Shown here one piece after another: positions 20,339 to 20,892 of a DNA stretch of 59,829 bases. Below the pieces are notes generated by a model. That model saw only the letters and a program-made list of their open reading frames with translations. It searched no databases and was not told where the DNA came from. The DNA comes from Patescibacteria group bacterium. GTDB lineage: Bacteria; Patescibacteriota; Minisyncoccia; Phycocordibacterales; UBA918. Position 1 is the first letter of the stretch. Each line of letters starts with the position of its first letter. Where the stretch lies: positions 112,554 through 172,382 of the forward strand of contig JAZKFU010000003.1 in the NCBI GenBank assembly GCA_040386275.1, read 5' to 3'. The position numbers and the translations under genes were made by a program.

Positions 20339-20821
20339 ATGATAAGAAAACGTAAATGGACAAATGAAGAACTAATTTTGGCCGTTGAAAATTCAGCGAG
20401 TATTCGTGCTGTACTCATTAAAATAGGACTTGTTCCTGCAGGCGGAAACTACAGACAAGTTTCCCAAACAATTAAAGATTTAGATATCGATATTTCTCAT
20501 TTTACCGGCATGGGCTGGAGAAAGAACAGAACATTTGAATTTATACCCCAACGCGAATTGAAAGATATTCTTGTAGCAAATTCTGATTTTCAAAGTTTTA
20601 AACTTAAAAAAAGATTATTTGTTGAAGGATTAAAGACACCAAAATGCGAAATCTGTCACTGGGCAGAAATGTCAAAAGATGGTAGGATTCCTGTCGAACT
20701 GGATCATATTAATGGCAATCGATTCGATAATAGAATTGAAAATTTAAGGATTCTTTGTCCAAATTGTCACAGTCTTCAACCCACACATCGTGGTATGAAC
20801 CAGAAAAAGCCAGGGTGGTGA
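20339..20821 (+). CDS. HNH endonuclease (CxxC...HNH...CxxC) whose 3' end overlaps tRNA-Leu
   Basis: KCEICHW...ELDHINGNRFDNRIENLRILCPNCHS. Confidence 0.9.
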   Translation: MIRKRKWTNEELILAVENSASIRAVLIKIGLVPAGGNYRQVSQTIKDLDIDISHFTGMGWRKNRTFEFIPQRELKDILVANSDFQSFKLKKRLFVEGLKTPKCEICHWAEMSKDGRIPVELDHINGNRFDNRIENLRILCPNCHSLQPTHRGMNQKKPGW

Positions 20822-20892
20822 AATCGGTAGACACGCAACACTTAAAATGTTGTGATCGAAAGGTCATGCGGGTTCAAGTCCCGCCCCCGGCA
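20809..20892 (+). tRNA. tRNA-Leu(TAA)
   Basis: GCCAGGG TG GTGAAATCGGTAGACAC G CAACA CTTAAAA TGTTG long variable arm GCGGG TTCAAGT CCCGC CCCCGGC A; A4.C69 mismatch. Confidence 0.93.

Follow-up and report, generated by a model that had tools for sequence, protein, structure and literature searches.

We analysed a 59,829-nucleotide (nt) stretch of DNA, referred to below as the window, from a Patescibacteria group bacterium (GenBank assembly GCA_040386275.1, contig JAZKFU010000003.1, positions 112,554 to 172,382). Our subject is an open reading frame (ORF) for an HNH endonuclease that is wedged between two tRNA genes. The host genome comprises 982 kb (0.98 Mb) in 11 contigs, with 44% G+C and 40 tRNA genes; four of these specify tRNA-Leu (anticodons caa, taa, tag and gag), and the tRNA-Leu(UAA) gene is single. 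The ORF is intact, encodes 160 amino acids (aa) and finishes with the codons for K-P-G-W and a stop within the 5′ end of this tRNA-Leu(UAA) gene, which was found by ARAGORN and matches the Rfam tRNA model at 55.4 bits. A divergent tRNA-Cys(GCA) gene lies on the other side, and the HNH/tRNA pair adjoins infB and rbfA. In metagenome run X1, the same form is found intact on a contig that covers positions 20189-20927 of the window with zero differences, and no HNH-free form of the strain was seen in the contigs of four metagenome runs. A contig from run X8 that joins 20247 to 20809 was not counted: it extends over only 30 nt on one side and probably originates from a relative.

A preliminary description of this DNA, made from the sequence alone, had placed the ORF between two tRNAs, with its end 13 nt inside the tRNA-Leu(UAA) gene, and had recognized trailer elements at both neighbouring tRNAs; all of this was confirmed. 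It had also connected the overlap with an A4.C69 mismatch in the acceptor stem of tRNA-Leu(UAA). The mismatch exists, as the stem otherwise pairs regularly (G1-C72, C2-G71, C3-G70, G5-C68, G6-C67, G7-C66), and A4 (position 20812) is indeed the third base of the Pro codon CCA of the ORF. The connection with the ORF, however, did not hold. The position is synonymous in the Pro codon, so that the A is not imposed by the reading frame, and the same mismatch occurs in HNH-free tRNA-Leu alleles of two relatives (G024, locus L015; G012, locus L043); it is therefore unrelated to the overlap.

Judged by its sequence, the product of the ORF is an HNH (His-Me finger) nuclease with intact active-site residues, in agreement with the preliminary description. 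It matches Pfam HNH_3 (PF13392) over aa 113-138 with 29.4 bits, against a cut-off of 24.8, and the phrog_10822 profile over its full length (E 1.3e-44, aa 1-157 on profile positions 2-157 of 245). The top PADLOC model is 'HEase homing endonuclease' (2e-20), and the Atlas search matched HNH clusters exclusively. The residues C103, C106, D122, H123, N135, C140, C143 and H144 are invariant in 31 aligned sequences; from general knowledge of the fold, we take the D-H pair, the Asn and the His to be catalytic and the CxxC pairs to bind zinc. An N-terminal module of ~59 aa is conserved as well (W7, L12, S21, L31, A34-G35-G36-N37-Y38, H54-F55-T56), and long relatives of 270-280 aa (P0040, P0072, P0094, P0103) carry three such modules in tandem. 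Pfam has no family on the N-terminal 70 aa, and a weak HTH_Tnp_1 match on the module (E 0.0025, below cut-off) was obtained with P0072 only; the module is presumed to bind DNA. The family is large, with 7,602 database proteins at E<=1e-5; the labels of its homologs indicate Patescibacteria/CPR, and a profile search of PDB sequences found no solved relative (best E 0.57 and 0.65). Several other assignments were rejected. IscB reached 13.8 bits against an equivalog cut-off of 175, in the HNH part only, for a protein of just 160 aa. Zorya ZorE reached 27.5 bits against an equivalog cut-off of 600, and the PADLOC ZorE matches are confined to the HNH core. Membership of the T4 SegB family requires a GIY-YIG domain, and only HNH families were matched.

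The gene is very strongly linked to a tRNA gene. The preliminary description had put forward a fixed adjacency of homologs to tRNA 5′ ends as a test, and the outcome was strongly positive: 35 of 42 chromosomal orthologs end at or shortly before the 5′ end of tRNA-Leu(UAA). In the genus, 30 tRNA-Leu(taa) loci were fetched, the tRNA was found by ARAGORN in 29 of them, and 8 bear an HNH gene. All eight HNH genes are on the same strand as tRNA-Leu(taa), 0-110 nt 5′ of it or running inside it, and all eight loci have a tRNA-Cys gene on the minus strand ~92 nt upstream. tRNA-Cys adjoins tRNA-Leu(taa) in 29 of 29 genus loci, on either strand in those that are HNH-free. In two additional genus genomes, G064 and G067, an HNH_3 match lies within ~90 nt of tRNA-Leu, which brings the total in the genus to 10 of 61. 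Other lineages of the Candidate Phyla Radiation (CPR) contributed 11 loci, from records labelled Saccharimonadales, Magasanikbacteria, Paceibacterota, Moraniibacteriota and Parcubacteria. At every one of these, the HNH stop falls between -36 and +5 nt of the tRNA-Leu(taa) start, and tRNA-Cys, here on the plus strand, is directly upstream in eight.

A sample of 400 genomes of the phylum from outside the genus yielded 23 orthologs at a threshold of E<=1e-30. Sixteen abut tRNA-Leu(taa); two adjoin tRNA-Leu(cag) and have Leu(taa) a short way upstream; three, all from one family, are found directly 3′ of tRNA-Leu genes. The remaining two are a gene interrupted by a contig end and a distant copy (38% identity) near tRNA-Met. 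Since there are 40 tRNA genes in the 982 kb of the host genome, and yet nearly all orthologs abut the same tRNA, the arrangement is far beyond chance, and the reading of the frame as a chance ORF was rejected. The chromosomal CPR copies form one orthologous lineage in a fixed slot 5′ of the single tRNA-Leu(UAA) gene, usually after tRNA-Cys(GCA).

The overlap with the tRNA is equally widespread. Out of the 118 top database homologs, 78 extend at least 9 residues beyond the last conserved motif, and in 59 of these 78 testable proteins the last five residues are an exact translation of tRNA-Leu(taa). Translations of 122 other tRNAs gave zero matches among the same 78 tails. This run-on of the frame into tRNA-Leu therefore characterizes the family as a whole. 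The conserved part of the protein stops at the tRNA boundary, and the frame continues into the tRNA up to the first stop; as the depth of the overlap varies, the C-terminal tail itself is not conserved.

A similar association is found in viruses. By protein similarity, 246 phage records were matched at 35-46% identity; these PHROG 10822 phage HNHs resemble the window protein over the full length and are often located beside tRNA-Leu. Flanking tRNAs are present at 9 of 11 GenBank phage loci, and tRNA-Leu is among them at five of the nine. In Escherichia phage mistaenkt, the HNH stop is 1 nt ahead of tRNA-Leu(tag); in Gordonia phage GodonK, the HNH gene lies between tRNA-Leu(tag) and tRNA-Glu, with overlap; and in Synechococcus phage S-CRM01, it lies between tRNA-Leu(caa) and tRNA-Ile. 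From IMG/VR, 80 loci were fetched, 61 of them distinct after removal of identical copies, and a directly adjacent tRNA was found at 44 of the 61. On the upstream side, the neighbouring tRNA is Leu(taa) in 32 of 39 cases; on the downstream side, 13 of 18 neighbours are a tRNA-Leu. Viral copies are thus mostly 3′ of tRNA-Leu(UAA), whereas chromosomal CPR copies are 5′ of it and form a separate clade. The recurrence of such adjacency in unrelated genomes is not accounted for by the inheritance of one locus and points to recognition of tRNA-Leu gene DNA.

We consider that the ORF probably encodes a free-standing homing-type HNH endonuclease, belonging to a family that is tied to tRNA-Leu(UAA) genes and resides in tRNA clusters. 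A homing-type nuclease of tRNA genes had been the suggestion of the preliminary description, and it seems to be the best reading of the adjacency, the varying presence of the gene and the phage precedents. The HNH gene would be transcribed together with tRNA-Leu, in the genus from the 92-nt spacer that follows tRNA-Cys and elsewhere as part of a Cys-HNH-Leu precursor, and ordinary tRNA processing would release the HNH mRNA. The stop codon is located 13 nt within the tRNA gene, so that 5′ maturation of tRNA-Leu would separate it from the ORF, a loss that might hold the nuclease at a low level. The enzyme could then nick or cut at insert-free tRNA-Leu(UAA) genes, within the gene or next to it, and the HNH gene would be copied into the empty slot by recombinational repair. 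The spacer in the window holds the motif GTGGAATACT (20296-20305), which is common to the HNH-bearing spacers (eight aligned by eye) and may be a promoter for the HNH gene and tRNA-Leu. A consensus scan found no sigma-70-like site in the 92-nt spacer and no promoter or terminator on the plus strand around the ORF, so that the promoter idea comes from the motif aligned by eye. A look for expression found no RNA run that contains this stretch. The features of the locus are collected in Table 1.

Table 1. Features of the HNH gene, its flanking tRNA genes and their trailers, in positions of the window.
Feature	Positions	Strand	Basis
HNH endonuclease ORF, stop included	20339-20821	+	ORF; Pfam HNH_3; phrog_10822; PADLOC; dN/dS
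N-terminal module, ~59 aa, presumed DNA-binding	20339-20515	+	Alignment; three tandem copies in 270-280-aa relatives
HNH (beta-beta-alpha-metal) catalytic core with two CxxC pairs, aa 101-150	20639-20788	+	Alignment; T5 HegA similarity
tRNA-Leu(UAA), with A4.C69 mismatch	20809-20893	+	ARAGORN; Rfam
Overlap of 13 nt: last base of the Lys codon, P-G-W codons and stop	20809-20821	+	ORF and tRNA coordinates
tRNA-Cys(GCA), divergent; conserved left neighbour of the slot	20173-20246	-	ARAGORN
Spacer from tRNA-Cys to the HNH start (ATG), 92 nt; holds GTGGAATACT at 20296-20305	20247-20338	.	Alignment by eye
tRNA-Cys trailer (context, outside the HNH unit)	20047-20172	-	Hairpin; inverted T-arm copy; module A; 3′-end copy
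tRNA-Leu(UAA) trailer (context)	20894-21085	+	Hairpin; inverted copies; module B; degenerate 3′-end copy

The distribution of the gene is patchy. Of the 61 genus genomes, 10 have a Leu-linked ortholog, and of the 400 other genomes sampled in the phylum 23 do, in each case as a single copy. The nearest sampled relatives of the window's genome by aa identity of IF2 (G018, 95%; G024 and G075, both 84%) are all HNH-free at the locus. The spacer between tRNA-Cys and tRNA-Leu measures 25-231 nt without the HNH gene vs 562-683 nt with it. When 21 HNH-free spacers were searched for remnants of the gene by relaxed tblastn, only noise was obtained; at one locus (L054) a truncated HNH copy of 82 aa occupies the slot. 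Close relatives thus differ in whether this one site holds the gene, and the sites without it are clean. Among the genus orthologs, the ratio of nonsynonymous to synonymous substitution rates (dN/dS) is 0.04 for the lone pair with unsaturated synonymous sites and at most 0.17 for the other calculable pairs. The protein is therefore kept functional by purifying selection.

Several of our observations weigh against a homing nuclease. Synonymous sites are saturated in all pairs but one, and there is no sign of recent transfer. The HNHs of the genus form one clade (IQ-TREE, SH-aLRT 92) in a tree that follows taxonomy, and all 39 chromosomal copies group in a single clade that excludes the 65 viral ones (FastTree, support 98). 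Two truncated matches (L054, L076) were left out of the trees, and the long branch L077 (38% identity) was left out of the FastTree analysis, in which viral rows with <135 matched residues, with stops or identical to another row were also excluded. Trees of this kind would fit a long vertical residence with losses equally well as homing, and a domesticated gene, kept as a single copy, would likewise be expected to show long-term purifying selection. A single hint of incongruence was detected: the HNH of G045 is the most similar to that of the window (78% identity), while its IF2 is among the least similar (69%). The pattern of the tRNA-Leu alleles is ambiguous. An A-T-rich T-stem is found in tRNA-Leu of 7 of 8 HNH-bearing and 2 of 21 HNH-free alleles, which looks like shared descent within a subclade, and the window's own tRNA-Leu allele is of the 'free' type. 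As the window thus breaks the pattern, no signature of immunity or co-conversion could be established. Together with the patchy distribution, the trees and substitution rates suggest an old resident lineage that has undergone many losses, rare gains, or both.

Both tRNA genes that flank the ORF carry trailers. Trailers recur in the genome, with a layout of terminator-like hairpin, inverted T-arm copy, structured module A and direct 3′-end copy. The tRNA-Cys trailer follows this layout, with an inverted T-arm copy at 20122-20134 and, at 20047-20067, a direct 21-nt copy of the 3′ end of its own tRNA. The trailer of tRNA-Leu(UAA) comprises an inverted copy of the 3′ strand of the acceptor stem, an inverted T-arm copy (20970-20981) and a degenerate 3′-end copy starting at 21079. 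It also includes, at 20982-21078 on the plus strand, a module B of ~100 nt that is found again after tRNA-Glu(ttc), Arg(cct), Leu(gag), Gly(tcc), Lys(ttt), Met(cat), Val(gac) and Ala(ggc). Contig depth spikes at 20980-21147 in four metagenome runs, indicating that this stretch is multi-copy, and the spikes fit many copies of module B in many organisms. A further trailer in the window follows tRNA-Ser(cga) (44274-44450, plus strand), and tandem trailers are present at some tRNAs (Tyr, Arg(gcg) and Ser(act)).

Across the genome, ~22 of the 40 tRNA genes are followed by an inverted copy of their own T-arm and then by a direct copy of 13-24 nt of their own 3′ end. Module A is present in at least 19 copies, 89-321 nt 3′ of tRNAs; 19 of these copies share a fold of 22 pairs, 18 of which show compensatory changes, and no Rfam match was obtained for the module. 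Its motif was detected in 52 of 61 genus genomes and is essentially confined to the genus. The trailer is apparently an element, so far undescribed, that is matched to the 3′ ends of tRNAs. Direct copies of tRNA 5′ ends (13-31 nt), which mirror the 3′ trailers, lie 47-169 nt upstream of Thr(tgt) on contig C1, Gln(ttg) on C2, Glu(ctc) on C8 and Lys(ttt) on C9. ARAGORN also assigned unusual anticodons to tRNA-Ser(act) and tRNA-His(atg), at G000:C2:35567-35654 and C2:64680-64760; the tRNA-Ser(act) gene has two trailer units. Between the tRNA-Leu(UAA) trailer and tRNA-Lys lies an ORF of 101 aa (21091-21396, minus strand); it has no match in Pfam, and no similar DNA was detected at the equivalent locus of G018.

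Some of the points gathered above against homing would also suit a domesticated host nuclease. Such a gene would have entered the Cys/Leu operon of an early CPR ancestor and been inherited vertically since, as something useful to the cell (for example in restriction-like defence or in DNA uptake and repair), and its position would be of historical origin only. The separate clade of chromosomal copies, a tree that follows genus and family labels, strong purifying selection with saturated synonymous sites and the presence of one copy per genome all agree with this, and some sources give relatives of the protein the name McrA. However, the scarcity of the gene in the phylum and the genus, and its absence from the nearest relatives, are a poor fit for a useful housekeeping gene. 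Moreover, viral relatives share the adjacency to tRNA-Leu(UAA), which the history of one locus cannot explain. The matches to defence families (ZorE and IscB, above) are restricted to the HNH part and far below their cut-offs, and McrA in the PDB search reached only E 0.65. We thus regard domestication as unlikely. A remnant of a prophage or of an integrative island would account for the tRNA neighbourhood in another way, as tRNA genes are classical attachment sites and the family is common in phages. The insert, however, is a single gene of ~500 nt on the 5′ side of the tRNA, between two tRNAs and beside infB and rbfA, and the ORF list of region 19500-21800 contains no further phage-like gene. 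The same one-gene slot recurs across the phylum, with chromosomal copies that form their own clade, and a prophage origin of this sort appears very improbable.

The preliminary description had also seen in the HNH the only candidate mobilizer of the trailers visible in the window, an enzyme that would cut tRNA 3′ ends or element hairpins and so spread modules A and B. Both tRNAs around the HNH gene do carry trailers, and SegB-type enzymes cut tRNA genes in the T-loop region, where the direct repeats of the trailers start (PMC2330249). The co-occurrence of the HNH with module A, which had been named as a test, gave the opposite result: the elements are abundant where the HNH is absent, an outcome that the description itself had named as refuting. 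The module-A motif is present in 36 of 40 genus genomes without HNH_3 (14 matches in G050, 8 each in G016 and G075) vs 16 of 21 with it, and HNH-bearing G065, which is 99% complete, has no motif match. Elsewhere in the phylum, none of the 23 HNH-bearing genomes has the motif, and matches outside the genus stay at the level of the reversed-pattern control. In addition, the 19 or more module-A copies in this genome are spread over tRNAs of many isotypes, unlike the HNH family with its tie to tRNA-Leu. A role in mobilizing the trailers is therefore largely refuted by their distribution, and we give it hardly any credence.

The tRNA cluster in which the presumed homing nuclease resides is variable in its own right. 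The cluster of Cys(gca), Leu(taa), Lys(ctt) and Leu(tag) is maintained across the genus (29 loci among L014-L043; 20173-21652 in the window), but single tRNAs flip strand or change order between species; tRNA-Cys has plus orientation at 12 loci and minus orientation at 17. Compared with the window, G018 (the relative with 95% IF2 identity) shows an inverted Cys gene and an inverted Lys-Leu(tag) block. Its tRNA-Leu(taa) is only 79% identical to that of the window (L090; G018:C15, reverse strand, 2351-2590), and the 3′-end copy in its trailer matches the window-type acceptor strand, not its own tRNA. This suggests replacement of a resident tRNA gene, with its former 3′ end remaining in place. 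Other HNH genes are also found beside tRNAs. A second family (129-191 aa, with an N-terminal zinc-ribbon-like CxxC...YCSxxCQ pattern) lies 5-265 nt from tRNA-Thr(tgt/cgt) at 7 of 7 loci, one in the window's genome (L002; G000:C1:43044-43247, minus strand) and the others in relatives (L006-L011). There are also more distant HNH genes that directly adjoin tRNA-His (overlapping it by 15 nt) and tRNA-Ser.

It is tempting to extend the reading of the ORF as a homing nuclease to an isoacceptor-specific system of tRNA-gene homing common to phages and ultra-small bacteria, although we consider this broader picture doubtful. In such a system, the HNH family would recognize tRNA-Leu(UAA) gene DNA and would have resided for a long time in an essential tRNA operon, with tRNA processing acting as its 'splicing'. 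The breaks that it makes might help to drive the flips, reshuffling and allele replacement in the cluster; separately, the trailer modules would represent a new class of elements that target tRNA 3′ ends. What appears to be new in our data is a large HNH family tied to one tRNA isoacceptor in both viruses and cellular chromosomes, its fixed slot within an essential single-copy tRNA operon of bacteria with reduced genomes, and its long persistence in this slot under purifying selection. A full-text literature search, with supplements and subscription journals outside its coverage, found no description of such a tRNA-Leu-tied HNH family. Should the target be confirmed, the family would be a source of natural nucleases with specificity for a tRNA gene, and a clean model of how tRNA processing can make a selfish gene harmless, as splicing does for an intron.

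Free-standing homing endonucleases in tRNA clusters are already known from phages, namely T4 SegB and the enzymes of T5. The free-standing enzyme SegB is encoded between tRNA genes and is made from a tRNA precursor; it recognizes a T-loop motif of tRNAs, cuts tRNA genes of phages without segB and is thereby copied in (PMC2330249). The same text places the segB stop codon at the processing site of the downstream tRNA, a position proposed to limit expression, and notes the absence of SegB from close relatives with otherwise homologous tRNA regions (PMC2330249). In those respects, the window's gene is much like the segB described there, being a nuclease gene wedged between tRNAs, patchy in its presence, with its stop at or in the downstream tRNA. 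There are also differences. SegB has a GIY-YIG fold and is phage-borne, whereas the window protein is an HNH enzyme encoded on a cellular chromosome. SegB homologs are described as generally associated with tRNAs without isotype preference (PMC13096335), in contrast to a family tied to tRNA-Leu and mainly to its UAA isoacceptor. Finally, cleavage and homing are demonstrated for SegB, whereas both are inferred for the window's HNH.

Another near precedent is given by the heg genes of phage T5, which are HNH genes within a tRNA cluster. The overlap with the 5′ end of the downstream tRNA is 14 nt for hegC, which is located after tRNA-Leu(UAG), 23 nt for hegD and 24 nt for ORF T5.069. The T5 HNH enzymes, under F-Tfl names, were reportedly described by Akulenko in 2004, and control by loss of the stop codon is said to have been proposed for the enzymes of this tRNA cluster as well. 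The catalytic domain of T5 HegA is 46% identical to the window's HNH over aa 72-154 (E 4e-23); the similarity is limited to this catalytic part, and the N-terminal module of the window protein stays outside the alignment. HegC and HegD show very little similarity to the window protein (E 0.003-0.004). The hypothetical ORF T5.069 (L089, record positions 34006-34524), between tRNA-Cys and tRNA-Asn, has a heg-like geometry and no similarity to the window's HNH. In all these comparisons the T5 heg genes are phage-borne, whereas the gene of the window is part of a bacterial chromosome.

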